Of a DNA stretch of 64,000 bases, positions 7,073-64,000 are shown piece after piece. The notes beneath the pieces were generated by a model. The model did no database searches, was not told the origin of the DNA, and saw only the letters and a list, made by a program, of their open reading frames with translations. The translations under genes were made by a program, and so were the position numbers. This DNA is from Patescibacteria group bacterium. Its GTDB lineage: Bacteria > Patescibacteriota > Doudnabacteria > UBA920. The stretch is taken from contig DAIMCS010000001.1 in the NCBI GenBank assembly GCA_036726225.1, forward strand, positions 333,856-397,855. The letters are read 5' to 3'. Position 1 is the stretch's first letter. The number at the start of each line of letters is the position of its first letter.

Positions 7073-7173
7073 ATTTATGCCCAGTAATACAACTTTCAAT
7101 ATTTTCAATAAATTCAGACGCTGCAATTTGATTATTAATAAAATTTTAGATCCCGAATCTGAGGGGTTTAGAA

Positions 7174-9506: not shown

Positions 9507-9547
9507 GGGTAAATTATAAACGCATTAGCCTGTCTCTGTCCATGTAG

Positions 9548-9579
9548 TTGACTAAAATCACCGAAGAGATTACTATAAT
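9548..9579 (+). promoter_or_regulatory. sigma70-like promoter (TTGACT, 17-nt spacer, TACTAT, overlapping TATAAT)
   Basis: TTGACT at 9548-9553, spacer aaaatcaccgaagagat, then tactataat. It is followed by a strong Shine-Dalgarno GGGGGA and ATG at 9605. Confidence 0.4.
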
Positions 9580-9604
9580 AAGTCCATATTCTAGGGGGAA
9601 GCAA

Positions 9605-10060: not shown

Positions 10061-10193
10061 TTCGGGCTTAAAGCAGGTATTTCGCAGGTCTGGTATAAGA
10101 AAAAATACCAGTCTTGCGGGACACCGGCTTTTTTGTTTCCCTAGCTTCTTGACGTTATCTTGACTTCCGTGATAGACTGACAACCAGTTTGTG

Positions 10194-10288
10194 CCTACAG
10201 AACTACAAAATGGGGACACTACAGATAACTACAGAATTTTTGATCCTTTTGTAGTCATCCGTAGTGCATCTAATCTGTAGTTTTGTAG
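10194..10288 (+). promoter_or_regulatory. palindromic array of 4 CTACA(G/A) units followed by 4 (C/T)TGTAG units immediately upstream of uvrA; candidate operator
   Basis: Forward units at 10194, 10203, 10219 and 10229; reverse units at 10249, 10259, 10275 and 10283. The spacings are mirror-symmetric (9,16,10 against 10,16,8). The array ends 4 nt before the uvrA ATG. Confidence 0.35.
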
Positions 10289-10291
10289 TTT

Positions 10292-13144: not shown

Positions 13145-13191
13145 GGCAGCTTGCCCCGCATCCCGAATAAAATGAGTGGTGCGGGGTATTT

Positions 13192-13223
13192 AAAAAAAGT
13201 CCTCTAAGCAGAGGGCTTTTTTT
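13192..13223. terminator. bidirectional intrinsic terminator (A7, hairpin, T7) after uvrA
   Basis: aaaaaaaGTCCTCTaagcAGAGGGCttttttt. It is preceded by a second hairpin CCCCGCA...TGCGGGG at 13154-13186. Confidence 0.6.
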
Positions 13224-13858
13224 GTTGGAGTGAAACGTTTGAATAACAGTAACGATAGGTGTATTTAAGTAACTGTTAATTGAACCAAGTTAAAAATTTC
13301 AAAATAAAAAAATTAGGAACAAGTTTCCCCTAAGCCATCCTCAAGTTTTTAACAGCTTGTCCACACCTTATCTATTTTTGTTTTATTCAAGGGAAAAACT
13401 TTTTATCTTTACCGATCTTTTTTTGAGTGCTATAAAGATTAAATCCCTAAAAGAGGAAATTAAAATTTAAACATAGAAATAAAATCTATGCTTGCAAAAC
13501 ATTGTAATCAAGCGAAAATTTTTTTTATTTATTTGAACAAGAAGGCCTGAAATTTTAAGGACTTTAGTCTTTATCTTTCGGGCCTTTTTGTTTTTTACTC
13601 TCAATAAAGGTCGGCTTGCAAAAATAACGCAAGATGAGGGTAAAAATTTCCTGCGCAAGGCCCCCAAAACGGGGCCATAAGTTATATAAATATTTTGTGG
13701 CTCCTGTTGGGGGACAAAAGCCCCCGTTATTTAAAACCTTGTAAGCCTAAAATGGCTATGCTCAGAGGGGAGTCAGGCAGGAAAAAATAAAACTAACCTC
13801 ACAACTTGCCTAAGGGTTAAGTTGTGAATCTGTCTTATAGACAGAAAGAGAGGGATTT

Positions 13859-15580
13859 ATGAAAAAAATAATGAAAAAAGCCGGCCTGTGGGCCGGTACA
13901 GTAGGCGTGGTCATAGCCGGAGCGGCTACTTTTTCCGCCTTTGAAGCTCACATAATAAACGTGACTGCCAGAATTGAAAATGCACTTGCGGTACAAACCG
14001 GTGCAATTGATTTTGGCACCGTATTCCCGCAGGAATTTTTGGAAGCGGCACTTCCGGTGACCATGTCCGAATCTTTCTTAGGCGAGGATAGGGTAGATGA
14101 CATTGAATATGTCATTAAACAAAAACCCAAGGTCAAGCTATTTGACGGCGAGGTAGCAGACCCTAACGAAAATCCAACACCCGGCGACCCGTACGCCACA
14201 ATTTTCCCAACCACGCATCCAGAGGGCATAGTGGCCTGGCGATATTGTGAAGAAAATTTGCCGCTAAATGCTCCTTATTCGGTAACCGAAGCCAACATGG
14301 GTGACGAATACTGGCGTTACTGCTATTTGCCGCTTGCCAACTATTTGTCCAAGCATGAAACTACTGCTGACGGAAGTGTAACTGAAAATGACATTTCCGT
14401 GGACGCTTTCCACCAGTCGTATATGTGGAATGCCAGCACCAGCCAAAGCTCGCTGGATCCGGCCTTTATTGCCCGGGGAAGGCTGGCTAAGAGTGAGCAG
14501 GACACAGAAGATGCATGGACCATTGACTTAATGGTGCCCTGCTTTATAAACCACTGCGCCCAGGAAGCTGACGATCCAAATAATCTTCCCGAAGATCAGA
14601 TTCCGGGGTTCTTTGTGCCCGGACCGTTCCGATTGCCCACCTCCACTGAGCATTCAGTCTTTGGGACTGACTTGTGGATTGAAGTTAGCGGCATTAGCTT
14701 GCCGCCAACAGATGTACCAGGCACTTTAACCGTTACTAAAGTGTTGGTTAATGACAACGACGGTACAGCCACCACTACTGACTTTAGCTTTGCAGTCAAT
14801 GGTGGAGCTTCCGCGCCGTTTGAGGCGGACGGCACTAATGTAATTGCATTGCCGGCCGGCAACTACGACGTAGTCGAGGATGCCGCAGCAGGCTATACTA
14901 CCACTTATGCCAACAGCTTGAACGCAAGCCTGGATTGTCAGGACTTGGTTGTTCCAAGCGGCGGCAATGTGACATGTACAATTACCAACGATGACACTGC
15001 TCCTCCCGCGCCGGAAGTTGGAGAATTAACAGTCATTAAGGTAGTAGTTAATGACAATGGCGGCACAGCTGTTACCGGTGATTTTTCCTTGTTTGTTGAT
15101 GCCGCAGCTGTGGTCTCCGGTGTTTCCACCACCACTGCTGTAGGCAGCCACACCGTGAGTGAAGCCGGATTGTTTGGGTACTCTGCTACTTTTAGCGGTG
15201 ACTGCAATGCTTCTGGTATAGTAGAAGTGTCATCAAGTACTCCCGCTACCTGTACCATTACCAATGACGACATTGCGCCAACCATTACAGTTACAAAGAA
15301 CGTAGTGGGCGGAACTGCTTCGCCTGATGACTTCGACCCGTCAGTTGACGGGGCGGTTGTAACTTCGGGCTCTTCAACTGTCGTGAGCGCAAATGTTGCT
15401 CACGCAATTGATGAAGAGGCAAGTGTAGCAGGTTACACTTTTACCTCAATAACCGGTGTTTCATTTTTAGGAGTGGCATGTCCCCTTGTGCTTGATGGGA
15501 CTATAACTCTTACCCCGGGTGATGTAGTAACTTGTACTATCACTAACACCAGCGTTCCGACAGTTGCTACAACTAACTAA
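13859..15580 (+). CDS. secreted TasA/camelysin-like protein with a putative SipW-cognate signal peptide and three C-terminal repeats of an Ig-like (Cna-B/prealbumin-like) domain
   Basis: The N-terminus reads MKKIMKKAGLWAGTVGVVIAGAATFSAFEAHIINVTARIENALAVQTGAIDFG. The AF....A.GTxD segment resembles the mature N-termini of TasA/camelysin. Three repeats end in VTCTITNDD, ATCTITNDD and VTCTITNTS. The strong ribosome-binding site is agagaggg. Confidence 0.5.
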   Translation: MKKIMKKAGLWAGTVGVVIAGAATFSAFEAHIINVTARIENALAVQTGAIDFGTVFPQEFLEAALPVTMSESFLGEDRVDDIEYVIKQKPKVKLFDGEVADPNENPTPGDPYATIFPTTHPEGIVAWRYCEENLPLNAPYSVTEANMGDEYWRYCYLPLANYLSKHETTADGSVTENDISVDAFHQSYMWNASTSQSSLDPAFIARGRLAKSEQDTEDAWTIDLMVPCFINHCAQEADDPNNLPEDQIPGFFVPGPFRLPTSTEHSVFGTDLWIEVSGISLPPTDVPGTLTVTKVLVNDNDGTATTTDFSFAVNGGASAPFEADGTNVIALPAGNYDVVEDAAAGYTTTYANSLNASLDCQDLVVPSGGNVTCTITNDDTAPPAPEVGELTVIKVVVNDNGGTAVTGDFSLFVDAAAVVSGVSTTTAVGSHTVSEAGLFGYSATFSGDCNASGIVEVSSSTPATCTITNDDIAPTITVTKNVVGGTASPDDFDPSVDGAVVTSGSSTVVSANVAHAIDEEASVAGYTFTSITGVSFLGVACPLVLDGTITLTPGDVVTCTITNTSVPTVATTN

Positions 15581-15634
15581 AACTATTCCATACCTTTCCC
15601 CGTGGAGGGCGGGGAAGGGTATGGGTAGGGTATA

Positions 15635-16159
15635 TTGAGGAACAAAATAAATTTTAAAATACAATTTATGGACGAACAAATAAGGCCCGCCCAGAATCCA
15701 AACGTGAGTGTAAAAAATGAATTAATAAGCAGCACTCCGGTAAAAAAAAGAAGCAAATTAAAGCTGGTGCTGTGGGCAATATTGGCCCTGGTAATTATTT
15801 TGCTTTTAGTGCAATACACAAATGCTGCCAAGTACGAAGCTTTAGTGCAGGTAATTGATGAGGACAGAATTGGCGTTAATCCAACTTCCCAAAGGCTGGA
15901 TTTTGGAGATTTGCCCAAAGACAAAGACGCTATCCGCACTGTAAGTTTGCAAAATCAAAGCAGCTACAAAATGCCCAGCTACGTAATTGTCTGGGAGCGC
16001 GGCGAAATTTCTGACTTAATGCGCGTGAGTAAAAATTTCTTCACTTTGGATCCCGGCCAAACCCAAAGGCTGGATTTTACGGTTCACGTTCCTAGCTCTG
16101 CTGAATTTAAATATTACAAAGGTAGTGTGGTTATTTTTCAAATTCCAAAAATCTGGTAG
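15635..16159 (+). CDS. single-pass membrane protein with a beta-rich extracytoplasmic domain (DUF1573/Ig-like pattern); possible anchoring or assembly partner of the fibre proteins
   Basis: Transmembrane helix LKLVLWAILALVIILLLV, followed by RLDFGDLPKDKDAIRTVSLQNQS...FTLDPGQTQRLDFTVHVP. Confidence 0.4.
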   Translation: MRNKINFKIQFMDEQIRPAQNPNVSVKNELISSTPVKKRSKLKLVLWAILALVIILLLVQYTNAAKYEALVQVIDEDRIGVNPTSQRLDFGDLPKDKDAIRTVSLQNQSSYKMPSYVIVWERGEISDLMRVSKNFFTLDPGQTQRLDFTVHVPSSAEFKYYKGSVVIFQIPKIW

Positions 16160-16183
16160 TTTTGGACTTACGCACAAAATAAA

Positions 16184-16660
16184 ATGGATAAATTTTATGT
16201 TAACGCCATGAAAAAATATTTTATTAGCGCAACAAAAGTTTTAGTGTACCTCGCCTTTGTGGGTCTTGCTATGTACTTTACCCCCAAAGTACTTTCTCGT
16301 AGCCTAAATACGCTCTATCCTTTAGCTACCATTACTTCCGGCTCTATGTGGCCGCAGCTAAAGGTTAATGACTTAATTTTAATGAAAGGCGCAACCGGGG
16401 ACGAAGTAGAGGCAGGGCAGATTATAATTTTTAAGAACCAGCGGGGTTTTACCATTCACCGGCTTCTTCGAAAAGAAAACGGCAAACTTATAACCAAAGG
16501 CGATGCCAACAATGTGGAAGACGTGCCCGTATTGCCGCAAGATGTAATAGGCCGCGCTGTCTATGTTGGCAAAAAGCCGTTTCGGATCCCTTACTTAGGT
16601 TTAATTGCAAGAAATTTACCCCAAATTCGTGCTTTGCAAAAATTGAGCGGTAATAATTAA
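16184..16660 (+). CDS. sipW: signal peptidase I, SipW-type (S26B, archaeal/ER-like)
   Basis: Catalytic Ser box TSGSMWPQLKVNDLILMKG, His box TIHRL and the ITKGDANNVED box (compare SipW ITKGDNN). It has a single N-terminal transmembrane helix. It is distinct from the bacterial-type LepB at 52804. Confidence 0.7.
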   Translation: MDKFYVNAMKKYFISATKVLVYLAFVGLAMYFTPKVLSRSLNTLYPLATITSGSMWPQLKVNDLILMKGATGDEVEAGQIIIFKNQRGFTIHRLLRKENGKLITKGDANNVEDVPVLPQDVIGRAVYVGKKPFRIPYLGLIARNLPQIRALQKLSGNN

Positions 16661-17716
16661 TTGGAAGTTTGTATGGAGAACAAGCTCTCAAAAAGAATTT
16701 CTGTTAATCCGGCTTTAAGGCTTGGCAATGCCAGGCAGTCTTTTGCTGTGCCGGGGGAAAAGCTCCGAGGGAAGTTTAAGTTTGCCTCTCCTAAAGTTTC
16801 CAGTATTACAATGAGCTTTGAGGCAAATCAGCAGCCCAAAAGAAATTTTTTTAGTAAGCAATATTTAAGGATTTTTAATTTAGGCATTGCTTCTTTAATT
16901 GGTATTTTGTTTTCTATTTCCGCCCTGCACGCGTTTGAGGCGCACGTGATTAACGTGACGGCTAAAATAATGCCCAGGCCGTGTTTGATTTTTAATGTGT
17001 ATTCACAAGGCTATTGGAAGAATCACACCGACGAATGGCTTTTGCCCCAAAATTTGGGGCCTTTGGAAATTAATACTGTAGAAGAAGGCTTGGAAATTTT
17101 TGATACCAAAAAAACTCATTTAGATAAGTTGCGCGTTCAGCTGCTGGCGTTAAAGCTTAGCTTAGCTTCGGAGGAAGGCGCGGGCCAGGCCTTAGTGCCC
17201 GGATTGGTAATAACATTACAGCAGTTAGCCGACCAGGTAGATGCCTTACTTTCACAAGACCCGCTTCCTTCAGATACAGTTTTGGAAGATTTAAAAGATC
17301 TCGTAGAAAGTGTGAATGTGGCGCATACAGTATCTACCTGTGAAGGGCATGAGCCCGGTTCTGGCGGGGATGACGATGATGACGATGAAGGTAACGGCAA
17401 TGGGAATGGGAATAACAACAACGACAATGGTCAAAACAATGAAAATAATTCTTCACAGCCTGCTTTAGAGGTAGTGGAGGGAGAAGTTTTGAGCGAAGTC
17501 CAAGGCACAAGCACTACTACGAGTGACACGGCTGCTACATCTACACAAACAACAACTAATTCTGAACAGAAAGAAAAGTCTAACGAGAAATCAGAAGAAA
17601 ATTCTTCCAACTCCCAAACTACTTCATCCGCGCCTGCACAGACGTCTTCTTTAGTACCCAAAGAGCCAAAATCATCAGACACAGAATCACAGGCAGCAGA
17701 AGGCGAAGGCCAATAG
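16661..17716 (+). CDS. secreted protein sharing the AFEAHVINVTAKI N-terminal motif with the 13859 gene; acidic Asp/Asn/Gly/Ser-rich low-complexity C-terminal tail
   Basis: Reads ...GILFSISALHAFEAHVINVTAKIM..., then GGDDDDDDEGNGNGNGNNNNDNGQNNENNSSQP...TSSAPAQTSS. Confidence 0.6.
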   Translation: MEVCMENKLSKRISVNPALRLGNARQSFAVPGEKLRGKFKFASPKVSSITMSFEANQQPKRNFFSKQYLRIFNLGIASLIGILFSISALHAFEAHVINVTAKIMPRPCLIFNVYSQGYWKNHTDEWLLPQNLGPLEINTVEEGLEIFDTKKTHLDKLRVQLLALKLSLASEEGAGQALVPGLVITLQQLADQVDALLSQDPLPSDTVLEDLKDLVESVNVAHTVSTCEGHEPGSGGDDDDDDEGNGNGNGNNNNDNGQNNENNSSQPALEVVEGEVLSEVQGTSTTTSDTAATSTQTTTNSEQKEKSNEKSEENSSNSQTTSSAPAQTSSLVPKEPKSSDTESQAAEGEGQ

Positions 17717-17981
17717 CCGTCATTGAAACTTTTTTGTAAATTTTTCGATATGCTATATAGAAAGGACAGGTATGCGCTTAAAATTTTCCAAACAATTGAC
17801 CATGAGTGTTAAGGCAGGCGGGAAGGGCTTGAGGAGAAAGCTTGAAAAAATGAGCAATGCAATTCGCTATCCCTGGTAAGCTTGTTTTTACCCATAAACA
17901 CTAAACTTTAGCCGTTATGCCTAAAGCTGTTTTGTTGTAAACCGTTAACAAGGCTAATTTAATATTATTGAGCATATTTTT

Positions 17982-18012
17982 AAAAAAAGTCAGCCACGGC
18001 TGACTTTTTTTA
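17982..18012. terminator. bidirectional intrinsic terminator
   Basis: aaaaaaAGTCAGCcacgGCTGACTttttttt: a 7-bp stem and 4-nt loop flanked by an A-run and a T-run. Confidence 0.7.
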
Positions 18013-18080
18013 ATGTTGTTATATATTGACAACAATAATCTTTGCAATAAGCTTGGTTTATAAGAATTAAAGTTAAAAAA

Positions 18081-19724
18081 ATGAAAAAGTTTTTTTATCT
18101 TCTGGGCACAAGCTTGTTATTTTTTGCTTTGCCCCTTTTAGCTTTTGCAGAAGAGCCGGTAGCCCAAATTAAAATAATTTCAAAACCCCAAAGCATTGCT
18201 ACATCCACGCCTTCTTCTGTTTTTACCGTTGAAGCTCAGGACGCTTTGGGCAACAAGGTGGATGTGGCAACCACCACGCGCGTAAATCTCAGCGCAGATT
18301 CGGCAACCGGCCAGTTTTTAACAGCTTCGGCGAGCGTATGCAATACCGCAACGACTAGTAGTGTAACAATTGCCAACGGCAGTTCGCACAAAAGTTTTTG
18401 TTATATAGACGAAAGTCCGGGAAGTTTTACACTGACCCTTTCTGTAATTGACCAGCCTTCTGTGCTGGGTGATTCGCAAATAATTGTAATTTTAGGAGAA
18501 GAACCTGCGCCTACCCCTACGCCTACGCCGAGTCCCGAACCTGTACCGACTACCACGCCAAAAAGTTTATTGGTAAAAATTTACAGGTTTTTGCCTAATC
18601 CGCCCGGGGAAGATTCGGGCAACGAGTGGGTGGAAATTAAAAATTCCGACGAAAATCCGGTATCTTTGGACGGTTGGTTTTTGGATGACGAAGGTATGGA
18701 GCCGGGTAGTAGCGCTTTTGTTTTATCAGGCGAAATATTGCCGGGCGAGATTAAACGGATTATTTTACCCGTCGGCAGCTTTGCACTTAACAATAGCAGC
18801 GGGGATGAAGTGAATTTATATTTTAATGACAAATCAATTGCCCATAAGGTCGTATATGAGGCCACGGCTTACGATGACGGCATATTTGAATTAATTGACG
18901 GGGTTTGGCAGCCGCCCCCACAGCCTTCACCCGGAGGCGGTGGGGGCGGCGGAAGCAGTCAAACCCCGTCTGGCGGGGGCCCTAAAAGCCAATCATCGAC
19001 AGCAACCACTACAGCCGTGGCCTTGAATATTATAATTAGCGAAATTTATCCAAGACCTTTGGAAGGCGGAGAGGAATTTTTAGAGTTGTATAATGTTGCC
19101 ACGAGCACGGCCAACTTGCAGGGGGCCGTATTGCAAATTGGTAACAGGAAAAAAGTTTTTGAAAAAGGCGCAAAAATTGAGCCGGAAAAATATTTTGTAA
19201 TTTATGAAGACGACTTGCCCGTGCGTTTGTCCAACAACGGCCAAACAATTAAATTTTACGACTCTTCCGGCAAACTGCTGGCTCAAATTTTATATCCCAA
19301 AGCAGAGGAAGGCCACGCTTATGGAAGCGATGACGGCAAAACTTATGCCTGGACTAGCACCGTAACTGCCGGCGACAGCAATTTTTATGTACTGTCTGAA
19401 GCCGTGGAAGAAAAAGAATCAGCTAAAGATGAAAAACCTAAAACCACCGCATCCAAATCTACATCATCCGGCATTACTTCATCCCAAGCCAAAGCAATTT
19501 TGAAAACAAATGAGGATCTAAAATTACAAATTTCTGTATTACAGGAATCTATAAACCAGTTAGCGCTAAAATTAGATAATCTTCAAACTCAAAAAACGCC
19601 GGCACAGGCTATCGGACCGCCAGCTCCCACCTCTTTAAAAAAGGGGAGAATTTTAGTGTGGCCAACAGCTATTATAGTTTTAAGCGGTATAGTTTATACG
19701 ATTTTTAGAAAGCCAAAAGATTAA
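18081..19724 (+). CDS. secreted, C-terminally anchored protein with two lamin-tail domains (LTD) and a coiled-coil stalk
   Basis: Signal peptide MKKFFYLLGTSLLFFALPLLAFA. LTD motifs IYRFLPNPPGEDSGNEWVEIKNSDENPVSLDGWFLDDEG and IISEIYPRPLEGGEEFLELYNVATSTANLQGAVLQ. Coiled coil LKLQISVLQESINQLALKLDNLQ. C-terminal transmembrane helix. Confidence 0.7.
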   Translation: MKKFFYLLGTSLLFFALPLLAFAEEPVAQIKIISKPQSIATSTPSSVFTVEAQDALGNKVDVATTTRVNLSADSATGQFLTASASVCNTATTSSVTIANGSSHKSFCYIDESPGSFTLTLSVIDQPSVLGDSQIIVILGEEPAPTPTPTPSPEPVPTTTPKSLLVKIYRFLPNPPGEDSGNEWVEIKNSDENPVSLDGWFLDDEGMEPGSSAFVLSGEILPGEIKRIILPVGSFALNNSSGDEVNLYFNDKSIAHKVVYEATAYDDGIFELIDGVWQPPPQPSPGGGGGGGSSQTPSGGGPKSQSSTATTTAVALNIIISEIYPRPLEGGEEFLELYNVATSTANLQGAVLQIGNRKKVFEKGAKIEPEKYFVIYEDDLPVRLSNNGQTIKFYDSSGKLLAQILYPKAEEGHAYGSDDGKTYAWTSTVTAGDSNFYVLSEAVEEKESAKDEKPKTTASKSTSSGITSSQAKAILKTNEDLKLQISVLQESINQLALKLDNLQTQKTPAQAIGPPAPTSLKKGRILVWPTAIIVLSGIVYTIFRKPKD

Positions 19725-48204: not shown

Positions 48205-48233
48205 GTTGACATTTAGGCCAAAAAGGAGTATAA
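48205..48233 (+). promoter_or_regulatory. perfect consensus sigma70 promoter TTGACA-N17-TATAAT with no annotated CDS downstream
   Basis: TTGACA at 48205-48210, spacer tttaggccaaaaaggag (17 nt), TATAAT at 48228-48233. Confidence 0.6.
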
Positions 48234-48484
48234 TAGTATAAATAAAAATAAAAAACCAGGAGGCTTTTTTTATTCATTGTATTTTAACATATTGTGTCCG
48301 ACACCCTATTTGCAAGTCGCCAAAGCTGGTATCATCCCTCCTATTACTGGCCAAGGCATCAAGTAAAGGTTTGTAGACGATTGTTTGCAGCCTTTCACTT
48401 GCAGGTAGGGTAGTGGACGGAATTATGAGGAAAGCAACCTTGACGGTTTCTTTCCTCATTACTCCTTTTTTCCCTTCAAAGTTA

Positions 48485-56296: not shown

Positions 56297-57544
56297 ATGG
56301 CTAAAGAAAGTTATATTGTAGGGCTCGATGTCGGCACCTCCAGCGTTCGGGTGGTGCAGGCTAAGCTTCAGGCTCAAAGCAATGAGTTTAGCGTGATTGG
56401 CGCAAGCGAAGTTGCAAGCGTCGGCCTTAGGCGTGGGGTGATTGTTGACATTGAGGAGGCGGTGTCTTCTATTTCCAGCGCTTTGGAAAAACTCGAGCGT
56501 ATGACAGGCGTGCCGGTTTCTTCCGCCAATGTTTCTGTTTCGGGAAGCCATGTGTCATCTATTTCTTCTCACGGCGTAATTGCCGTATCCCGGGCTGACG
56601 GGGAAATTACGGAAAATGATATTGTCCGCTGTATAGATGCCAGCCAGGCCATTTCCATCCCGCAAAACAAAGAAGTTCTGCACGTCTTTCCCAAAACTTT
56701 TACGCTCGACGGCCAAACCGGCATTAAAGACCCGCTGGGTATGAGCGGCATCCGTTTGGAAGTGGATACCATAATTGTGCAGGCCGGCCTGCCGTTTGTA
56801 AAAAATCTTACCCGCGCCATTGCACAGGCGGGTTTGGAAATAGACGAGCTGGTTTTAGCGCCGGCTGCGGCAGGTGAAGCTGTATTAAGCAAGCGGCAAA
56901 AAGACTTGGGCGTGTGCGTTGTGGATTTGGGCGCCGGCACCACAGGCTTGGCCATTTATGAAGAAGGTGACCTTCTCCATACTTCGGTTTTGCCGGTGGG
57001 CCAAAGCCACATTACCAACGACATTGCCATTGGGCTTAGGTGCTCAATTGAAACCGCGGAAAAAATAAAACTGCAATTCGGCCACTGCGAGCCCAAGGCA
57101 GTGGAAAAAAACCAGGAAATAGATTTGTCTAAAATTGACAGCACCGAAGAAGAATCTACCACGCGCGGTTATGTGGTGGAAATTATAGAAGCGCGCCTGG
57201 AAGAAATTTTCAATCTCATAAACGGCGAACTAAAAAAAATCCAGCGTGACGGCAAACTGCCTTCCGGCATAGTGCTAACCGGCGGGGGAGCCAACCTTCC
57301 CGGGGTGGTGGATTTTTCCAAAAAACATTTGCGCCTGCCTTCTTCTTTGGGCCTTCCCCAAAATATGAGCGCCATTGTCGACCGTGTCCATGACCCAAGC
57401 TTTGCTACGGCTGTTGGCTTAACCCTTTGGGGCGGCAAATTCTCCGGCGGCAAAAGCGCGGGTTTTTCGGGCGCGTTAAAAAATATAATGTCCAACCAAA
57501 CCGTAGCCAAAGTGCGCAAGTGGTTTAAATCGTTCCTTCCTTAG
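56297..57544 (+). CDS. ftsA: cell division protein FtsA (actin-like ATPase)
   Basis: YIVGLDVGTSSVRVV, an actin-fold phosphate-binding loop context, and a C-terminal amphipathic tail. 415 aa. Confidence 0.75.
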   Translation: MAKESYIVGLDVGTSSVRVVQAKLQAQSNEFSVIGASEVASVGLRRGVIVDIEEAVSSISSALEKLERMTGVPVSSANVSVSGSHVSSISSHGVIAVSRADGEITENDIVRCIDASQAISIPQNKEVLHVFPKTFTLDGQTGIKDPLGMSGIRLEVDTIIVQAGLPFVKNLTRAIAQAGLEIDELVLAPAAAGEAVLSKRQKDLGVCVVDLGAGTTGLAIYEEGDLLHTSVLPVGQSHITNDIAIGLRCSIETAEKIKLQFGHCEPKAVEKNQEIDLSKIDSTEEESTTRGYVVEIIEARLEEIFNLINGELKKIQRDGKLPSGIVLTGGGANLPGVVDFSKKHLRLPSSLGLPQNMSAIVDRVHDPSFATAVGLTLWGGKFSGGKSAGFSGALKNIMSNQTVAKVRKWFKSFLP

Positions 57545-57650
57545 GCCTTAAAATTTTAAACTCCCTAAAACAGGGGGTTTTTATTGTGGCTTAAGCTTGG
57601 CACAAACTGCTGAATTTGGCGTTATTTATAGTAGTTATTATAGAGCAGCA

Positions 57651-57679
57651 TTGACAAAACAGTTGTTTTTTGATATAAT
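57651..57679 (+). promoter_or_regulatory. perfect consensus sigma70 promoter TTGACA-N17-TATAAT at the left edge of the G+C-richer island
   Basis: TTGACA at 57651-57656, spacer aaacagttgttttttga (17 nt), TATAAT at 57674-57679. Confidence 0.6.
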
Positions 57680-57805
57680 AGTAAGTTATTGTAGGCATTT
57701 TGTAGCCTTTAAAGTTAGAGGTTATGGATGTGCCCAGCAATACCGCTGGCACTTTTAAACAGCGGTAATTGGGCCGCAATTTTTGAAATTTCAAAGGAGA
57801 GGACA

Positions 57806-59398
57806 ATGAAGAAAGTTCGTGAGTTTTTTGCAGTGGTGCTTTGTATGACCTTGTTTGTTTCCACAACCCAGCCGCTGATGGCGCAACAGGCGCCGCAGGC
57901 ACAACAGAATCCGTTGGTCACAGAACAAAGGATGACTAACGGACAGGTGACCACGGTTTGGCAGCTCATCATCCCGGCACAGCCTGAAGACAGGGATGTC
58001 TTGCAACTAAATCGTCTGGTATACGGTTTTAGTTTGATCCAGAGCGGCGGCAAGGTCACGGAGTTTATAAAGGAGTACCAGGCGCGAGTCGTTCCGCCAA
58101 ACGCCTACATGGAAGCCGCCAGTTTGGTGATCCAGTACGCGGGCAACCGTGTGCTCACCGACCCGGTGGACACCATCGGCTTTGGACCGAACGACGTTCA
58201 GATTATCAGGACTGCGGATGAAATTCGCAGGTACTATGATTTGAACCCCGGCAGCTTTAGCCCCGTACTTTGGCAGCGCGACCCCATTGGCGACTGCGTG
58301 ATTGTTCAGCGAAGGGATTTGCTGAAAAACGCCGACGCCATTGAGGCCCGGATCCAAAAAATTTTTGCCAGCGAGCCGAACAAGGCTCAGGCATGGATTC
58401 GGGCTTTCCGGTCTTGTGCCAACCAGAACGGCGACAGCCCTACATGTAGGGACGTTCGCGTGGCCGACTTCCCATTCCTACAACGCAATCACGGCAGGAA
58501 TAGCGTTGGAGAGAATGAGCGGTACGATCCAAGAACAACCAACCGTCCGGATGCCCACATGACAATTTATTGGGTGCCGGAATTAAACACCTGGAAGGGT
58601 AATGGCTGGGAATGTTGCGGTAACCCCTTGGAGTTTTTTGTCTCCTTGAGGCTTACTGCCAACGTTATCACCAAGCTCGTCCAGACCCCGCAGTTCGACT
58701 GCATGGTCATGCTGGATAAGAACGTGTTGTCCAGCAGGGCGGATGTTGCGACTGCCCGACTGACCCTTACCCCGCCTCAGAATCCGGACGACGTTTTGGT
58801 AGACTGGTTTTTAAACGGTCTGCCCTTAGGTCGAAACCAGATGATGGTTGATGTTTCCGGGGCTGCGGTCACCCAGCTTGATACCGATCAAACAGTATTG
58901 GCTGTGGTGGCTGTCGGCGACAAGGAAGTGCGCTGTTCAGGCCCTATCCGTCTACATCTTGATGTTCAGCTAGTACCCATCACGTATCGTTGCACCATTA
59001 CGCTGGACAAGCGCAAGCTTGTCGACCGCGATGATGTGGCAAACGCCCGGCTCACCATTACCCCCACGCCCAAAGAAACACCCCGGGTCGATTGGCATCT
59101 TAGAAAGATGCCAATAGGCAAGGATACCATGACTGTCCAAATCAAGGGCAGACAGTTGGGCGCGCCGGACACTGACCACGACGTGCTGGCATCGGCCACG
59201 GTGGAAGGGAGAGTCGTCGAGTGTCTGGAGACCGTCTCTTTCACCCAACCTCCCGGCGGTAATGGCAAGAAGATAGGTATAGCAGCCGGTATTGGAGCTG
59301 CTATCGTGGCGGCCGTCTTTGCAACAAGGGGCAAGGACTCTCGGCCGGTTCCTACCGGTAACCCGATCAAGACGGATCCGGAGGTTATCCGACGTTAA
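57806..59398 (+). CDS. secreted Cys-rich protein of unknown function with two ~90-aa internal repeats and a C-terminal transmembrane anchor (start at MKKVREFF)
   Basis: Signal peptide MKKVREFFAVVLCMTLFVSTTQPLMAQQ. The repeats are CMVMLDKNVLSSRADVATARLTLTPPQNP...VDWFLNGLPLGRNQMMVDV and CTITLDKRKLVDRDDVANARLTITPTPKE...VDWHLRKMPIGKDTMTV. C-terminal IGIAAGIGAAIVAAVFA. Confidence 0.55.
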   Translation: MKKVREFFAVVLCMTLFVSTTQPLMAQQAPQAQQNPLVTEQRMTNGQVTTVWQLIIPAQPEDRDVLQLNRLVYGFSLIQSGGKVTEFIKEYQARVVPPNAYMEAASLVIQYAGNRVLTDPVDTIGFGPNDVQIIRTADEIRRYYDLNPGSFSPVLWQRDPIGDCVIVQRRDLLKNADAIEARIQKIFASEPNKAQAWIRAFRSCANQNGDSPTCRDVRVADFPFLQRNHGRNSVGENERYDPRTTNRPDAHMTIYWVPELNTWKGNGWECCGNPLEFFVSLRLTANVITKLVQTPQFDCMVMLDKNVLSSRADVATARLTLTPPQNPDDVLVDWFLNGLPLGRNQMMVDVSGAAVTQLDTDQTVLAVVAVGDKEVRCSGPIRLHLDVQLVPITYRCTITLDKRKLVDRDDVANARLTITPTPKETPRVDWHLRKMPIGKDTMTVQIKGRQLGAPDTDHDVLASATVEGRVVECLETVSFTQPPGGNGKKIGIAAGIGAAIVAAVFATRGKDSRPVPTGNPIKTDPEVIRR

Positions 59399-59440
59399 CC
59401 ACGAACTCTTGACTGATAGCAAGAAAATCTACTATCGGAA

Positions 59441-59471
59441 GGCTCGAAACTCTATGTTTCGGGCCTTTTTT
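59441..59471 (+). terminator. intrinsic terminator
   Basis: GGCTCGAAACtctatgGTTTCGGGCCtttttt. Confidence 0.55.
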
Positions 59472-59590
59472 ATTTGCCTAATTTATGAGGGAAATGTGGA
59501 AATTCTCGCTTGGTAACCTTTACTTTGAGGTTTTCGATATATATAATAATGTGACCAAAATTGCACTTTCCAACCCAATAGGAGGACCAA

Positions 59591-60778
59591 ATGTCAGCAA
59601 GAATGACGTTATTCGGATTGATGTTTTTGTCGATTTTCAGCTTAGCCGTTCCGGCTTACGCGACTGACAATACGGAATTTTCCTTGCCTAAGGGCTGGAA
59701 TCCTAGTTGGGTTGCCCGACTCGTTACAGGTGAAAAGGCGAACTTCGCCAAGTTTACCTTTTTCCATCCCAATGGCAGACAAATAATTCTGTTCGACAAA
59801 GCAGGCAAGCTGACCGATAAGCAATACCGTTTACCTGTCAACACCAAGATAGTTATTCCGGAAAATCTTGTTATGACAAAGCAAGTTGCCGCAAGCGGAA
59901 AGACGCTTGCGCAGCTGTGCAGCCAGTACCGTGTTAGCACGTCGGATTGTTTGGAGGTTCGCACCGCGAACCGCCTTGCCAATCTGAATGCAAAAATAGC
60001 AGGCGACGTCAGAATTCCCGTGTGGTTTTCTGTTGTAGATGTTGCCGCACTGCCGGTTCCCCCGGGTTTCCAAACCTTAGGGGGCGTTGCTGTCGACTCG
60101 TCTAAAGTTCGTCCGGCTTTTCCCGTTGCGGAGTTGCCGCCGTCGAATTGGTCAGATGACCCGAGTTTGCTTATTGCAACAACTGCGGTTGTTCTGCTCT
60201 TAGCAGCGGTGTTGTTATTCATAATATTTCGTCCTGCTTTTGCTTTGCCTTATCTTAAACTACCGACATGGCTTAATATCTCCTGGCCTTTCCAAGCATG
60301 GCCTAACATATCATATTCTAAATACATACCCAGCCTGGCCTGGCCTAACATACAGTTACCCGGCTTTAAAAAGACAGTTAGCTTTTTTATGCCGGACAGA
60401 AACCGCCCATATAACATAGCAACATACTTTCGCCGAATGAGCAGGGACGATCTGGACGCATGCGTACTGTTTAAACAGGCTTTTGTGGACTATCTGGCGA
60501 GCGCAAATACTTACAGAGTACGCGAGCTGGACTTAACCGGATCCCAGGTTTTCCGTAACGGAACAGTTTGTTTGACCGTATACGGAAAAGGAAACAACAA
60601 CTTCCCCAACCTTAGGGACCACGCCCAAAACGTTGACCAGGCTGTCAAAAGTTTTATGAACGAACCAGAAGCGAAAAGTTTTTTGTTAGTGGACGCGCAG
60701 GCAGTTCACTCCGAAAAACTGGACAAAGATGGTGTGAAATTCGAATTTTGGCTTAGACCCAACTTAAAAAAGGAGTAA
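59591..60778 (+). CDS. signal-peptide protein with a LysM-like domain, a single transmembrane helix and a cytoplasmic domain with AWPNI repeats; unknown function
   Basis: Signal peptide MSARMTLFGLMFLSIFSLAVPAYA. LysM-like ...QVAASGKTLAQLCSQYRVSTSDCLEVRTANRLANLNAKIAGDVRIPV. Transmembrane helix LLIATTAVVLLLAAVLLFIIF. Repeats WPFQAWPNISYSKYIPSLAWPNIQLPGF. Strong ribosome-binding site AGGAGG. Confidence 0.5.
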   Translation: MSARMTLFGLMFLSIFSLAVPAYATDNTEFSLPKGWNPSWVARLVTGEKANFAKFTFFHPNGRQIILFDKAGKLTDKQYRLPVNTKIVIPENLVMTKQVAASGKTLAQLCSQYRVSTSDCLEVRTANRLANLNAKIAGDVRIPVWFSVVDVAALPVPPGFQTLGGVAVDSSKVRPAFPVAELPPSNWSDDPSLLIATTAVVLLLAAVLLFIIFRPAFALPYLKLPTWLNISWPFQAWPNISYSKYIPSLAWPNIQLPGFKKTVSFFMPDRNRPYNIATYFRRMSRDDLDACVLFKQAFVDYLASANTYRVRELDLTGSQVFRNGTVCLTVYGKGNNNFPNLRDHAQNVDQAVKSFMNEPEAKSFLLVDAQAVHSEKLDKDGVKFEFWLRPNLKKE

Positions 60779-60782
60779 ACAG

Positions 60783-62525
60783 ATGTATCTCATCGTACCC
60801 GGTACAGGTGATGGCGGCGGCAATATGACACTGCACCACGCCTGGGGATTGCATGGATGGCTTCAATTTTTAGAGCGGTGCGGCAGACGAAACCTCGCAG
60901 GTTTTGTGCGGGAAGAGACCAAATTCTTCTTCATCAATTCGGTGAAGGAGACTTTGAAGAACGTCGTCAAACGTATGCCTCCCGGCCTTCAGGTAGGCAC
61001 ACTGCTTTTGGAAGGCTTGAAAGACGGCACCGGACAAGAACCGGAAGTAGCCAGAGACGCCGCCGAAAAGACAATAAAATCGGGAAAAGTGGCGGAGCTG
61101 CTTTTGGAAGGGAAACCCGTTGTTTGCGTGCACAACCAGGCCTTTGGTCAAGGGGGGACGGGCTTGGGAGCCGGACCGCTTTTGACCCGGTACTTTCGGG
61201 ATGAGTTAGGCCTGATGACCATACCCAACATAACCACTTCCTCGGTTATGACCCACCAGGTAAATTTTACGCAAAGCAAATACATTAACGGGGTTATGGA
61301 TGAACACGCAGAGGCTGGCATCTCCGTCGCCCATTTCAGTACGGATTCGATTTTTGAAAGGGACGACGTTACGCCGGAGGAAGCGTTTGCGGAAATGGAC
61401 AGGCTGCAGGCAGCAATGTTTGGCCCGACTGTCAGGTGGCTGTCGCATCCCAGCCGCGTTGATTATATGGACTTGATGAGGAAAATTTACTTCAACCCCA
61501 AAGGCTCCAAGGCCAGATCATGGCTCATCTCCTGTGTGCCGGCCTGGGGTAATTCGTCCGTCCAAATTGTCAACCAGCTGTTAAACAACCGGTACTGCGT
61601 TTTCGAACTCGCAGAAGCCGGCGGCGGTGTGCTGATTGTTGAGGGGAAACTCTCCGCAAAGGCATATGCCGGAATCCTCTCTGAATTGACTGCCCGTATA
61701 AACTCCGTTTACGGAGGCAAAGACGGCAACCCCAACTTTACCATAAAAGATGTTTGGCTTCCCGGAAGCGAAACCGAACCAAATATCGGTTTGTGGTTGG
61801 GGACTTTCAATGGCAGCATTCCGATTAAGCAGGTGCCGCGTTTAGACCTGGCAGACAGAATGGGTGCAATTGAAATCGTGGAAGACGGAGATAAGGCATC
61901 TCAACCTCAAGCAGAAGCTCCGGCGTCAGTTGCGGTTGCCCTCACCGCTGTCGACGTGGCAGAACAACCCCCCGCCCCGCCCCCACCGCCAGACCCCGAG
62001 ATGCTGGAATTTAAAGACAAGTTCTTTTCGGAAGCCACCAGGCCCGAAGAGATCACCTTTGCAGCTCTCGTGAGAAAGGCGGAATCCAACGGCGAGACTA
62101 CCAAGCAACTGCTTCAGCACCAAGAGGCCTCCACGGTCTTGTCGTTGATGCAGGCGGTCCGTACGTTTCTGGAACCGACTGACAAAGGCTACAGCCCGTC
62201 TTGGAAAGAGCTTGCGTCGGTGTTCAAGATTCTAGGTAGGCTTCAGCGCAGCGGCGGGGTGCATACCTCCTGGAAAGATGCTTTGCTCCAGGCCATCCGG
62301 AATGACCTGGGCTGCTTTAAAGGGCCCAAAGAAGTCGCCAACAACGGCGCTTCGGCGAGCTACAAAATTGGCGATTCTACTCCCATTGGGCTTATCAGAA
62401 CTTATGCGGCCAAAAGTGGCGACAGCTTCGACATAGCCAGGTTCTACGAGGGGTGTTATGACTTTTTGGGACCGGAGGTCTACAAAAATCTCTGGATCAC
62501 AAGTTCGGAACCTGTCGTAGCCTAA
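60783..62525 (+). CDS. 580-aa cytoplasmic-type protein of unknown function: N-terminal ~360-aa domain, PPAPPPPPDPE linker, C-terminal ~170-aa domain
   Basis: No signal peptide and no recognised motif. It starts 4 nt after the previous stop codon, which suggests an operon. Confidence 0.5.
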   Translation: MYLIVPGTGDGGGNMTLHHAWGLHGWLQFLERCGRRNLAGFVREETKFFFINSVKETLKNVVKRMPPGLQVGTLLLEGLKDGTGQEPEVARDAAEKTIKSGKVAELLLEGKPVVCVHNQAFGQGGTGLGAGPLLTRYFRDELGLMTIPNITTSSVMTHQVNFTQSKYINGVMDEHAEAGISVAHFSTDSIFERDDVTPEEAFAEMDRLQAAMFGPTVRWLSHPSRVDYMDLMRKIYFNPKGSKARSWLISCVPAWGNSSVQIVNQLLNNRYCVFELAEAGGGVLIVEGKLSAKAYAGILSELTARINSVYGGKDGNPNFTIKDVWLPGSETEPNIGLWLGTFNGSIPIKQVPRLDLADRMGAIEIVEDGDKASQPQAEAPASVAVALTAVDVAEQPPAPPPPPDPEMLEFKDKFFSEATRPEEITFAALVRKAESNGETTKQLLQHQEASTVLSLMQAVRTFLEPTDKGYSPSWKELASVFKILGRLQRSGGVHTSWKDALLQAIRNDLGCFKGPKEVANNGASASYKIGDSTPIGLIRTYAAKSGDSFDIARFYEGCYDFLGPEVYKNLWITSSEPVVA

Positions 62526-62551
62526 AAGCCTATTCTTGCGTTTTGCATAAT

Positions 62552-62603
62552 CCCCCAAACTTTTTTTGCGCATTCTGCGTTTAGAAGTTTGGGGGATTGT
62601 TTT
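62552..62603 (+). terminator. intrinsic terminator with an 11-bp perfect stem
   Basis: CCCCCAAACTTtttttgcgcattctgcgtttagAAGTTTGGGGGattgtttt. Confidence 0.6.
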
Positions 62604-62754
62604 ATATCCCATTGACTAAAGTTAAAATTTTTGGTATAAATTAAGGCTATCTATAACTTATTATTTTGTTTTGGTTTTGTAAGTTAATTAAGGAAAATTA
62701 ACGTACGGGACCAGGCCAAAATGTGGTCTAGAACAAAATTCAACGGAGGCAGTT

Positions 62755-63528
62755 ATGAAAAAGATGATGATTCAGGTTTTGGTGATTTTTGCATTAGTGC
62801 TGTTTTTTGCAAACTTCGGTCTTGCTGCCGGGTGCGACATTCGTGTTCTGCCCAGCGCTAACGGTCCGATGCAGGCTTTGGTTGACGCAGGAATGAGCGT
62901 TAACCTGCTGTACGCTTTAAGGCATTCGGACGGTCGGGCAATTGATCCCAGTGAGCACAAAAAACTTTATGACCCTTACTTTTGTCTGGCAGAAGGCGCA
63001 AAGCCGGACAGTAAAAAAACTTCGGCTCTGCTGAAGTCGGCAGATGGAATTAGCCAGACGGCTGTGCAATCTGCGGCAGCCTGTTCTGCTACCGGCTGTG
63101 AAGAAAAACTTGCGGCGGTAAAAGCCGAGGTTAGCTCTTTGCAGAACCGGCTCAACGGCAAGTCGGACGAACTTGCGGCCGCAGACCGCTTAATAAAAGA
63201 GCTGAAGGGAGACGGGAGCAAAACCAAGCTTAAAACAGATGTTTCGGAAACGGACGATCCGGTTACGCTCGATGCGCTTCGGTACGAGCTTAAAAAAGTT
63301 CGAGAACAGCGAGACCAAAGAATCTCCAGATGGGGGTTACTTTGGGTTCTGCCCGCATTTATTGTCGGCGGGGGGTTAGGCCTTTTTAGAAATCGTAAAG
63401 CATTAAAAGATTCGCAAAATGAGCAGGGTTTTTTACGCAGGGAAAACCGCAAGCTAAAATCACAAGTCAGCGAATATGAACTGCTGCTCGTTGGTAGGGA
63501 TGATAAATCCCACCGCACCCGCTTTTGA
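62755..63528 (+). CDS. secreted/anchored coiled-coil protein of unknown function
   Basis: Signal peptide MKKMMIQVLVIFALVLFFANFGLAAG. A Cys-containing N-terminal domain, then a coiled coil (LAAVKAEVSSLQNRLNGKSDELAAADRLIKELK), a transmembrane helix LLWVLPAFIVGGGLGLF and a basic tail. Confidence 0.5.
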   Translation: MKKMMIQVLVIFALVLFFANFGLAAGCDIRVLPSANGPMQALVDAGMSVNLLYALRHSDGRAIDPSEHKKLYDPYFCLAEGAKPDSKKTSALLKSADGISQTAVQSAAACSATGCEEKLAAVKAEVSSLQNRLNGKSDELAAADRLIKELKGDGSKTKLKTDVSETDDPVTLDALRYELKKVREQRDQRISRWGLLWVLPAFIVGGGLGLFRNRKALKDSQNEQGFLRRENRKLKSQVSEYELLLVGRDDKSHRTRF

Positions 63529-63633
63529 GCGAATCTGTAAACCAAATGCAGGGGGAAGCATTTGGTTGGCCAATAAGCACTAATACAATATATACTTCTT
63601 GCCTTGCTTGGTACATCATCTAATTGCATATAA

Positions 63634-63671
63634 CTGACCTAGAGACAGGGCGTCTACTAGGTCAGTTTTTT
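63634..63671 (+). terminator. intrinsic terminator closing the island
   Basis: CTGACCTAGagacagggcgtctaCTAGGTCAGtttttt (9-bp stem, T6). Confidence 0.7.
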
Positions 63672-63699
63672 GTATGAAAAAATTTACTCTTTATGCCTA

Positions 63700-63728
63700 T
63701 TGACAAAAACTCTAAAATCTGCTATAAT
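63700..63728 (+). promoter_or_regulatory. perfect consensus sigma70 promoter TTGACA-N17-TATAAT
   Basis: TTGACA at 63700-63705, spacer aaaactctaaaatctgc (17 nt), TATAAT at 63723-63728. Confidence 0.6.
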
Positions 63729-63945: not shown

Positions 63946-64000
63946 GTGTATGGAAGAATCACAGTCAGGGGTTGGCCGGAAAAAACCCGTATTACGGTTT
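63946..64000 (+). CDS. 5' end of a CDS running off the window (GTG 63946 or ATG 63950); identity unknown
   Basis: The GGAGGG Shine-Dalgarno lies 8 nt upstream of the GTG. Only about 18 codons are visible. Confidence 0.3.
   Translation, partial: MYGRITVRGWPEKTRITV

Follow-up and report, generated by a model that had tools for sequence, protein, structure and literature searches.

Downstream of ftsA in the genome of a Patescibacteria group bacterium (Doudnabacteria; GenBank assembly GCA_036726225.1), four co-directional genes, here named P1 to P4, occupy a G+C-rich stretch of DNA and raise the question of what they encode and whether they work together. We analyzed them in a window of 64,000 nucleotides (nt) (contig DAIMCS010000001.1, positions 333,856 to 397,855 of the forward strand), to which all coordinates refer unless another contig is named. 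A preliminary description of this DNA had read the four genes as a horizontally acquired surface or host-interaction module, possibly an effector with delivery or anchor partners. All four open reading frames were found, and "secreted/membrane proteins" holds for three of the four products (P1, P2, and P4). We report that P3 belongs to a very rare and rapidly evolving kind of FtsZ paralogue, in which the C-terminal domain is new, and that P2 is its dedicated and probably wall-linked membrane partner. The two genes are as follows:

59591-60778, plus strand: P2, protein with a signal peptide, a putative LysM-like ectodomain, one transmembrane (TM) segment (residues ~194-212), W(P/L)NI repeats, and a cytoplasmic C-terminal domain
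60783-62525, plus strand: P3, 580-residue protein, predicted divergent GTPase of the FtsZ/tubulin superfamily

P3 is predicted to be an FtsZ/tubulin-superfamily GTPase

P3 is composed of a two-domain core (amino acids [aa] 1 to 365), a disordered, Pro-rich linker (aa 366 to 396), and a helical domain (aa ~400 to 570); the poly-Pro linker noticed earlier in this 580-aa protein reads PPAPPPPP. As a single sequence, P3 matched the Pfam Tubulin model (PF00091) with an E value of 3e-3 over aa 11 to 166 (18.2 bits, below the cutoff of 33), the ftsZ equivalog TIGR00065 with 3e-5 (23.3 bits versus a cutoff of 295.2), and the solved FtsZ of Bacillus subtilis in the PDB with 1e-5. When 1.84 billion representative proteins were scanned exhaustively with HMMER, the family was found to comprise only 11 clusters, with lengths of 553 to 649 aa. 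The 11-member profile matched FtsZ in the PDB at 2.4e-24 over profile positions 5 to 305, followed by RepX/TubZ (2e-11), CetZ (~1e-7), and tubulin (~3e-4), and it found genuine FtsZ (PF00091 plus PF12327) at 6e-18 among 5.8 billion proteins. PF00091 was matched by 9/11 family members, with a best E value of 1.5e-15.

The preliminary description had found no assignable motif in this protein, but P3 carries the G-box GTGDGGGN in loop T1 (aa 7 to 14) and the tubulin/FtsZ signature GQGGTGLG in loop T4 (aa 122 to 129). Residues G9, G12, G82, G84, G122, G125, T126, G129, and D227 are invariant in the 11 family and 17 FtsZ sequences. In T7, the residues R-V-D227-Y-M-D230 (VDYMDL) align with N-x-DFAD of FtsZ. 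D227 was found in 29/29 aligned sequences and D230 in no fewer than 90% of them and in 10 of the 11 family members; D230 is invariant in the two-sequence alignment of P3. In FtsZ, each subunit of a filament completes the active site of the following one through its T7 "synergy" aspartates. P3 keeps loops T1, T3, and T4 in addition to T7, and the whole core fold of the longitudinal interface is retained. An AlphaFold2 (AF2) model built from a 33-sequence alignment that included FtsZ had a mean predicted local distance difference test (pLDDT) score of 84.6, with 83 to 98 over aa 1 to 365; the model from the two-sequence alignment had a pLDDT of 41.5.

Judged by its sequence and AF2 model, P3 combines the two-domain fold, the glycine loops, the T7 motif, and the profile similarity of an FtsZ/tubulin-superfamily GTPase. 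That the GTP-binding and T7 residues are kept at overall identities of 18 to 27% argues for a functional GTPase rather than a decaying one, and the catalytic motifs, retained despite this divergence, appear to be under purifying selection. Neither a signal peptide nor a TM segment was found in P3, and a cytoplasmic GTPase of this family is not what would be expected of the effector or toxin that had been suggested.

We also compared P3 with the FtsZ of its own host. The two proteins are only ~17% identical (BLAST E value of 0.011), which rules out a recent duplication of the host ftsZ. Neither is P3 a housekeeping FtsZ: it fails on the TIGR00065 score, on the FtsZ_C domain, and on the C-terminal peptide, and a canonical ftsZ is present as well. 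None of the 11 family members matched PF12327 (FtsZ_C) at an E value of ≤0.01, and the FtsA-binding peptide [DE]-[ILV]-P-x-[FYW]-[ILMV]-[RK], which is DIPAFIR in the host FtsZ, was absent from all 11. In its place P3 has the ~170-aa helical C-terminal domain, for which sequence searches found no relative in the PDB or Pfam, the fold searches being dominated by the core. We consider this domain novel and specific to the family, as far as such comparisons can tell.

The FtsZ-like gene forms a conserved pair with an upstream partner gene

We then looked into the surroundings of the FtsZ-like genes. Contexts were recovered for nine family members, eight of which have readable DNA and a complete upstream gene (the window genome and those labeled L007, L008, L012, L013, L014, L015, and L030); the ninth (L011) is truncated at a contig edge, so that only 95 aa from the end of the upstream gene remain. 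In 8/8 contexts, a gene on the same strand lies directly upstream of the FtsZ-like gene, 0 to 25 nt away or overlapping it, as in L008 and L012. This tightly coupled P2-P3 gene pair is the conserved core of the locus.

The signal peptide, single TM segment, and AWPNI-type repeats ascribed to P2 were all recovered, with three W(P/L)NI repeats. Its cytoplasmic C-terminal domain is conserved, measures ~110 aa, and contains the motif [FY]P[NST][LMF]. P2 homologues precede the FtsZ-like gene in L007, L008, L012, and L013 (BLAST E values of 1e-4 to 1e-24), so that a P2-homologous partner is found in 5/8 contexts, the window included, with an ectodomain of ~150 aa and a common order of signal peptide, ectodomain, TM segment, and cytoplasmic domain. 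The upstream protein of L015 has the same architecture, and the [FY]P[NST][LMF] motif aligns in register near the C terminus of all eight upstream proteins. A PDB search with the partner family gave no relative. One partner homologue, probably that of L013 by its KGDTLWRIAEKV motif, matched LysM at 4e-5, and the L013 ectodomain aligns with aa 87 to 150 of P2 (E value of 2e-4); a LysM-like ectodomain in P2 is therefore plausible, by transitive homology only. Since the FtsZ-like gene travels with a mostly bitopic membrane partner, we favor a membrane-tethered cytoskeletal pair over an effector with its delivery apparatus.

Short, amphipathic-looking C-terminal tails, e.g., GVSSLFKGAFAKG, were seen in P0003, P0005, P0008, P0009, and P0010 of the FtsZ-like family. 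These include both members whose upstream partner has no TM segment, and the tails might thus offer an alternative route of membrane targeting. A hydrophobic-moment test of this feature was not discriminative.

In the window genome and in L007, L008, L014, and L030, the pair is located after ftsA, and L014 repeats the full synteny (dprA, der, hisS, yqeY, ftsA, partner, FtsZ-like gene, ftsZ). Such a position between ftsA and ftsZ could mean that P3 modulates the host divisome by coassembling with, capping, or competing with the canonical FtsZ while P2 positions it at the membrane. The retained T7 loop and longitudinal-interface core fold would suit this role, and a divergent, phylogenetically unstable second FtsZ has been noted in some genomes of the candidate phyla radiation (CPR) (Santana-Molina et al. 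2023, PMC9871819). However, mixed filaments are unlikely at ~17% identity to the host FtsZ, P3 lacks the FtsA-binding peptide, the pair lies away from ftsA and ftsZ in L012, L013, and L015, and most relatives divide without P3. We therefore hold a role in the host divisome to be quite unlikely.

The pair lies in an 11.5-kb insertion between ftsA and ftsZ

The genes that surround the pair in the window are as follows:

56297-57544, plus strand: ftsA, upstream border of the insertion (Pfam FtsA, 4e-34; SHS2_FTSA, 4e-28)
57806-59398, plus strand: P1, predicted secreted surface protein that carries a pair of ~85-aa repeats and is anchored at its C terminus, preceded by the ribosome-binding site GGAGAGG
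62755-63528, plus strand: P4, protein with a signal peptide, a conserved ectodomain of ~80 aa, a coiled coil, a TM segment (residues ~193-211), and a short, charged cytoplasmic tail
63946-64000, plus strand: start (GTG) of g5, a 423-aa gene product whose gene leaves the window (13164-14435 on contig L001)

The view downstream was taken from Joint Genome Institute contig Ga0137465_1000001 (L001), which extends past the window end; a protein identical to P3 is present on 16 contigs, the longest of ~0.5 Mb. The gene order on L001 is hisS, HIT, rpsU, yqeY, ftsA, P1, P2, P3, P4, g5, g6, g7, and g8 (g5 to g8 encoding 423, 229, 300, and 205 aa, respectively, with g7 a multi-TM protein), followed by two genes of the opposite strand, one T4SS-pilin-like and one of 70 aa, and then by the canonical ftsZ. 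The latter encodes 395 aa with PF00091 and PF12327, the signature GGGTGSG, and the C-terminal sequence DIPAFIRKK, and it lies 5.8 kb downstream on the same contig. The insertion between ftsA and ftsZ therefore measures 11.5 kb and holds ten genes (L001 positions 6762 to 18321), and the island noticed earlier is its first half. At its far end beside ftsZ, the minus-strand gene at L001 positions 16839 to 17972 encodes a 377-aa protein with a C-terminal T4SS_pilin domain (PF18895).

The preliminary description had proposed to check by synteny whether ftsA is normally followed directly by the gene at 63946. The window FtsA is 74 to 81% identical to FtsA of metagenome-assembled genomes of "Candidatus Doudnabacteria" (Patescibacteria/CPR), and we surveyed 80 species-representative genomes with a related FtsA. 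In 47/80 the site is empty, ftsZ starting less than 400 nt past ftsA. The gap is 0.4 to 2 kb in 4 genomes and 2.6 to 8.4 kb in 5; there is no ftsZ within at least 5 kb of ftsA in 14, and 10 have too little sequence to judge. The large gaps are all confined to a subclade with FtsA at least ~71% identical to that of the window, and their content varies from genome to genome, with mostly orphan genes. The ftsA-ftsZ junction is thus a hypervariable hotspot in one Doudnabacteria subclade. Among the 80 genomes, only one (L030) has an FtsZ-like gene in the gap, and more divergent copies that might be hidden in the hotspots of other relatives were not turned up by a relaxed hidden Markov model search, by a motif scan, or by jackhmmer. 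The hotspot (L001, L016 to L041, and L072) ranges from 2.6 kb to more than 10 kb and contains lineage-specific orphans, with no mobility genes or att repeats found; the orphans include genes for proteins of 900 to 1,660 aa, followed by ~105-aa (DUF5663-like) genes.

Evidence for mobility was looked for in the insertion itself. The ten genes gave no Pfam recombinase or transposase match at an E value of ≤1 and no integrase, and the borders showed no flanking direct (att) repeats and no tRNA. Because, in addition, five or more lineages with FtsZ-like identities of 18 to 42% have the pair after ftsA, a recent single acquisition is unlikely. The proposed horizontal origin is thus upheld by the deviant composition of the region and by its absence from relatives, but not by any mobility signature. 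Searches for P3 relatives found none in genome contigs (with the P0001/P0002 alignment), none in viral contigs (IMG/VR), INPHARED phages, or PLSDB plasmids, and, in two scans of metagenome contigs, only P0003 itself. From these near-empty scans, the family is rare, with no sign of carriage by mobile elements.

These results bear on whether P3 could belong to a TubZ-like (type III) DNA segregation system of an integrated plasmid or prophage, as might be thought from TubZ/RepX being the second-best solved relative (2e-11) and from the deviant G+C content of the insertion that holds the gene. FtsZ scores far better (2e-24), and a membrane protein that gave no helix-turn-helix match is encoded upstream in place of a small DNA-binding TubR. 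We found no iterons or centromere-like repeats and no replication, integrase, or phage genes; a search of PHROGs was empty, and so were those of the viral, phage, and plasmid collections. This explanation is close to refuted.

Composition and transcription units of the region

The earlier impression of a G+C-rich island was borne out by computation. The G+C content of positions 57728 to 63528 is 0.505, versus 0.429 in the remainder of the window; 5.8-kb windows elsewhere in the stretch average 0.428 (standard deviation [SD], 0.015) and never exceed 0.457, which places the region ~5 SD above them. The G+C content at third codon positions (GC3) is 0.63 in P1, the highest of the window, 0.61 in P3, 0.50 in P2, and 0.49 in P4, compared with 0.31 to 0.53 in flanking genes. 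The shift is thus carried by P1 and P3, the GC3 of P2 and P4 lying inside the flanking range. FtsZ-like genes were GC3-richer than their own neighbors in 7/8 lineages (in L012, 0.62 versus 0.37 to 0.39), even though their products are only 18 to 27% identical; this was noted for the genes of L001, L007, L008, L012, L013, L014, and L030.

The following signals were located around the genes:

57558-57580, plus strand: weak terminator-like hairpin after ftsA (9-bp stem, then a T run; -10.9 kcal/mol, z = -1.8)
57651-57679, plus strand: sigma-70-type promoter for P1, TTGACA-N17-TATAAT (12/12 match, extended TG)
59437-59469, plus strand: intrinsic terminator after P1 (14-bp stem, then a T run; -20.4 kcal/mol, z = -5.7)
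59519-59547, plus strand: promoter-like site ahead of P2-P3, TTTACT-17-TATAAT (10/12; consensus match only)
62547-62600, plus strand: strong terminator after P3, closing the P2-P3 unit (-32.2 kcal/mol, z = -7.3, then GUUUUAU)
63632-63672, plus strand: terminator after P4 (-25.5 kcal/mol, z = -6.5, then a U6 tract)
63700-63728, plus strand: second perfect consensus promoter, before the next operon (g5-g8), which lies mostly past the window end; kept in L008
63735-63945, plus strand: structured 5' leader upstream of g5, about 216 nt (-80.7 kcal/mol, z = -6.7)

The perfect promoter and the closing "9-bp-stem terminator" by which the preliminary description had framed the island are both there, the former with an extended TG and the latter as the hairpin at 63632 to 63672. 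A hairpin after each gene was seen for the first, third, and fourth genes, but none stands between the second and third. Because P2 and P3 are 4 nt apart with no terminator in between, we distinguish three transcription units (P1, P2-P3, and P4) rather than one. The four genes are therefore not a single framed module, the more so as the insertion runs on for six genes past the window end.

Four perfect TTGACA-N17-TATAAT sites were observed in the window, versus 0.01 expected, the remaining two being at 761 to 789 (minus strand) and 48206 to 48234 (plus strand). Promoters of the textbook consensus type seem to be unusually common in this host.

The leader of g5 was compared with its counterpart in L008 (positions 5900 to 6170). 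Promoter, outer stem, ribosome-binding site, and GTG start are conserved; the apical part differs, yet it is self-complementary there too. An Rfam search gave no match, and we regard the leader as a candidate structured cis-regulatory leader or small RNA. Near-identical junctions of stop codon, ribosome-binding site, and start codon (TAA[AG]AAAGGA..AAACAGATG) precede P3 and g6 (L001 positions 9983 to 10004 and 14433 to 14454), which suggests a common translational-coupling context at two junctions of the insertion.

P1, P4, and g5

P1 had been described as a Cys-rich, secreted, anchored protein with two repeats, and we agree on each point: the start at 57806 yields a signal peptide, there are 10 Cys residues, the two repeats of ~85 aa are 41% identical to each other (E value of 3e-19), and a hydrophobic anchor lies at the C terminus. 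P1 matched no Pfam, NCBIfam, PHROG, or PADLOC family. Among 5.8 billion clusters it has one relative (P0054, 41% identity, 693 aa), which is encoded directly downstream of a sortase gene, a location that suggests wall anchoring of P1 at the cell surface. L007, L008, and L014 lack P1. With a single relative, by a sortase gene, and no conservation with the pair, P1 is best seen as an unrelated surface protein in the same hotspot.

For P4, the signal peptide and a second TM segment agree with the secreted, anchored coiled-coil protein described earlier. In L008, the gene right after the FtsZ-like gene encodes a P4 homologue (42% identity over 76 aa, E value of 2e-16) and is followed by that of a g5 homologue (36% over 211 aa, E value of 4e-32); no similarity to g6 was found at the end of L008. 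The hotspot also encodes weaker relatives of P4 in L019, L021, and L025, all without an FtsZ-like gene. P4 and g5, being conserved with the pair in one other lineage (L008), are probably accessory components.

We can now return to the proposal of an acquired module for the cell surface or for host interaction, with the 580-aa protein as an effector and its secreted or anchored neighbors as delivery or anchor partners. The raised G+C content, the absence of the insertion from most relatives, the signal peptides and anchors of P1, P2, and P4, the sortase gene adjoining the relative of P1, and the T4SS-pilin-like gene at the far end all accord with it. What speaks against such a module is P3 itself, a homologue of FtsZ that keeps the GTP-binding and T7 motifs intact and lacks both a signal peptide and a TM segment. 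Moreover, a toxin or enzyme fold was not found, conservation with the pair does not extend to P1, and mobility genes, att repeats, and a tRNA border were all looked for and not found. We consider an effector module very improbable.

Comparison with known systems

Bacterial FtsZ (PF00091 plus PF12327, TIGR00065) is the best match of P3 in sequence and in fold. The two share the two-domain core, loops T1, T3, and T4, the Asp-x-x-Asp of T7, the succession of core, disordered linker, and C-terminal adaptor, and a gene in the division neighborhood. Unlike FtsZ, P3 scores 23 bits against 295 with TIGR00065, shows ~17% identity, belongs to a family with no FtsZ_C match, and has a helical domain of ~170 aa where FtsZ has the short FtsA/ZipA-binding peptide. 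It is, moreover, a second copy with a dedicated upstream partner, extremely fast evolution, and a patchy distribution.

FtsZl1 and FtsZl2, two families of strongly divergent FtsZ-like GTPases that are found alongside canonical FtsZ and have novel C-terminal regions, were proposed to act in membrane remodeling with membrane-associated neighbors (Makarova and Koonin 2010, PMC2875224). FtsZl1 corresponds to Tubulin_2 (PF13809), has no recognizable T6-H7/T7 or C-terminal subdomain, contains long coiled coils, and is encoded in operons with vWA, GTPase, and OmpA genes (PMC2875224). P3 did not match PF13809, which was matched by 1/11 family members (3e-4), and no vWA, P-loop GTPase, or OmpA domains were found among its neighbors; as P3 also keeps T7 and the C-terminal subdomain, it is not an FtsZl1. 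FtsZl2 is proteobacterial, keeps T1 to T7, and has a C-terminal region of ~300 aa with mixed alpha/beta structure and no conserved neighbors (PMC2875224). P3 resembles it in keeping loops T1 to T7 and differs in its CPR origin, its alpha-helical C-terminal domain, and its conserved partner, a distinction drawn from the description of FtsZl2 only.

The divergent second FtsZ of CPR genomes was gathered with the PF00091 model, and neither a partner nor a C-terminal domain was described (PMC9871819). Since P3 falls below the Pfam threshold (18.2 bits versus 33), it is probably not part of that set; an overlap of its family with these proteins is possible.

The role that we propose for P2 is analogous to that of the tethers FtsA, ZipA, SepF, and EzrA and of divisome proteins with LysM or SPOR domains (DipM and FtsN), in that its cytoplasmic part would bind the C-terminal adaptor of a filament and its outer part would contact peptidoglycan. 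P2 is, however, related to none of them by sequence or family, and that a single bitopic protein would unite a LysM-like ectodomain with a filament-binding cytoplasmic domain is our inference from the present data rather than an established type. With TubZ/RepX, PhuZ, and CetZ, the last of which is archaeal, P3 would share the use of accessory filaments, dedicated adaptors, and C-terminal tails for partner binding or assembly; it is less similar to them than to FtsZ, is not on plasmids or phages, and has no TubR or tubC.

A proposed membrane-tethered accessory filament

We propose that P3 and P2 form a membrane-tethered accessory filament system, a reading to which we give an even chance. P3, as predicted from its FtsZ-type core, would assemble head to tail into GTP-hydrolyzing protofilaments. 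Its helical C-terminal domain would probably dock on the cytoplasmic domain of P2; the filament would in this way be held at the membrane, and the P2 ectodomain would link it to the cell wall. The filaments would be separate from the main divisome and would serve local remodeling of the envelope or the organization of a division or attachment site. More tentatively, and with the balance tilting against it, the pair may represent an undescribed class of tubulin-superfamily cytomotive system, in which an FtsZ-derived filament is obligately coupled through a helical domain to a bitopic membrane/peptidoglycan anchor. Such a class would be distinct from FtsZ, TubZ, PhuZ, CetZ, and FtsZl1/2, would be limited to few CPR lineages, and would diversify at conflict-like rates.

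Several observations weigh against the accessory filament. Loops T2, T5, and T6 are poorly conserved in P3, and its GTPase activity or polymerization could be altered. The FtsZ likeness of the AF2 core is partly built in, because the alignment held FtsZ sequences. The contact between P2 and P3 is a probable one, deduced from gene adjacency and from analogy with FtsZ anchors. P2 itself did not match Pfam LysM (PF01476). The upstream proteins of L014 and L030 are soluble (219 to 229 aa); a comparison with the cytoplasmic domain of P2 (hhalign E value of 1e-3, probability of 21%) is no more than suggestive of homology to that domain. The family is absent from most close relatives and is in that sense dispensable. 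The window genome and L014 have housekeeping proteins that are 57 to 86% identical (FtsZ, 82%; FtsA, 74.5%), but their FtsZ-like proteins are only 21% and their partners only 25% identical. Lastly, the neighbors in some genomes include a PIN toxin-antitoxin system, Imm44, RadC, and a transposase, or ParE, and variable regions by toxin-antitoxin, immunity, and transposase genes are more typical of conflict systems than of core cell biology.

The divergence between the two genomes implies either that the pair evolves severalfold faster than the genome or that it has been exchanged repeatedly within the hotspot. It leaves the puzzle of a fast-evolving, GC3-biased FtsZ-like family beside highly conserved ftsA and ftsZ in the same genomes. 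A rival reading is a rapidly diversifying conflict system, defensive or intermicrobial, with the FtsZ-like GTPase assembling or sensing and the membrane proteins acting as sensors or effectors. GTPase-centric conflict systems that contain tubulins have been proposed, and these include tubulin homologues with C-terminal alpha-helical domains (Kaur et al. 2020, PMC7159879), a precedent for P3. The low identity of the pair, its patchiness (1/80 related species representatives with an FtsZ-like gene near ftsA), the hotspot of orphan genes, the PIN, Imm44, RadC, transposase, and ParE neighbors, and the persistently deviant GC3 of the FtsZ-like genes point the same way. Yet 0/8 island proteins matched PADLOC, the defining vWA, TRAFAC/DO-GTPase, FNIII, and HSP70 components were not detected, and no nuclease, protease, pore, or other effector domain was recognizable. 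Furthermore, the family is of the PF00091 type and not Tubulin_2, and its location by ftsA/ftsZ recurs in five lineages. A conflict system is, in our judgment, unlikely.

Tubulin-family filaments are few in kind, and new cell biology came to light with each of TubZ, PhuZ, CetZ, and BtubAB. The bacteria of the CPR live as ultra-small episymbionts, most of them uncultivated, and, to our knowledge, almost nothing has been established about how they divide and attach. Public gene calls of P3 carry no Pfam annotation; because the family goes unannotated in this way, similar paralogues may be missed elsewhere. If the pair does represent an undescribed class, it might build or remodel a specialized site of the envelope, such as a structure for episymbiont attachment or for division asymmetry. 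Under the accessory filament reading, the pair would be a natural experiment in which the "core, linker, adaptor" design of FtsZ has been rewired to a new tether, and a second FtsZ-type GTPase with a wall-linked anchor would offer a testable handle on the organization of the CPR envelope.

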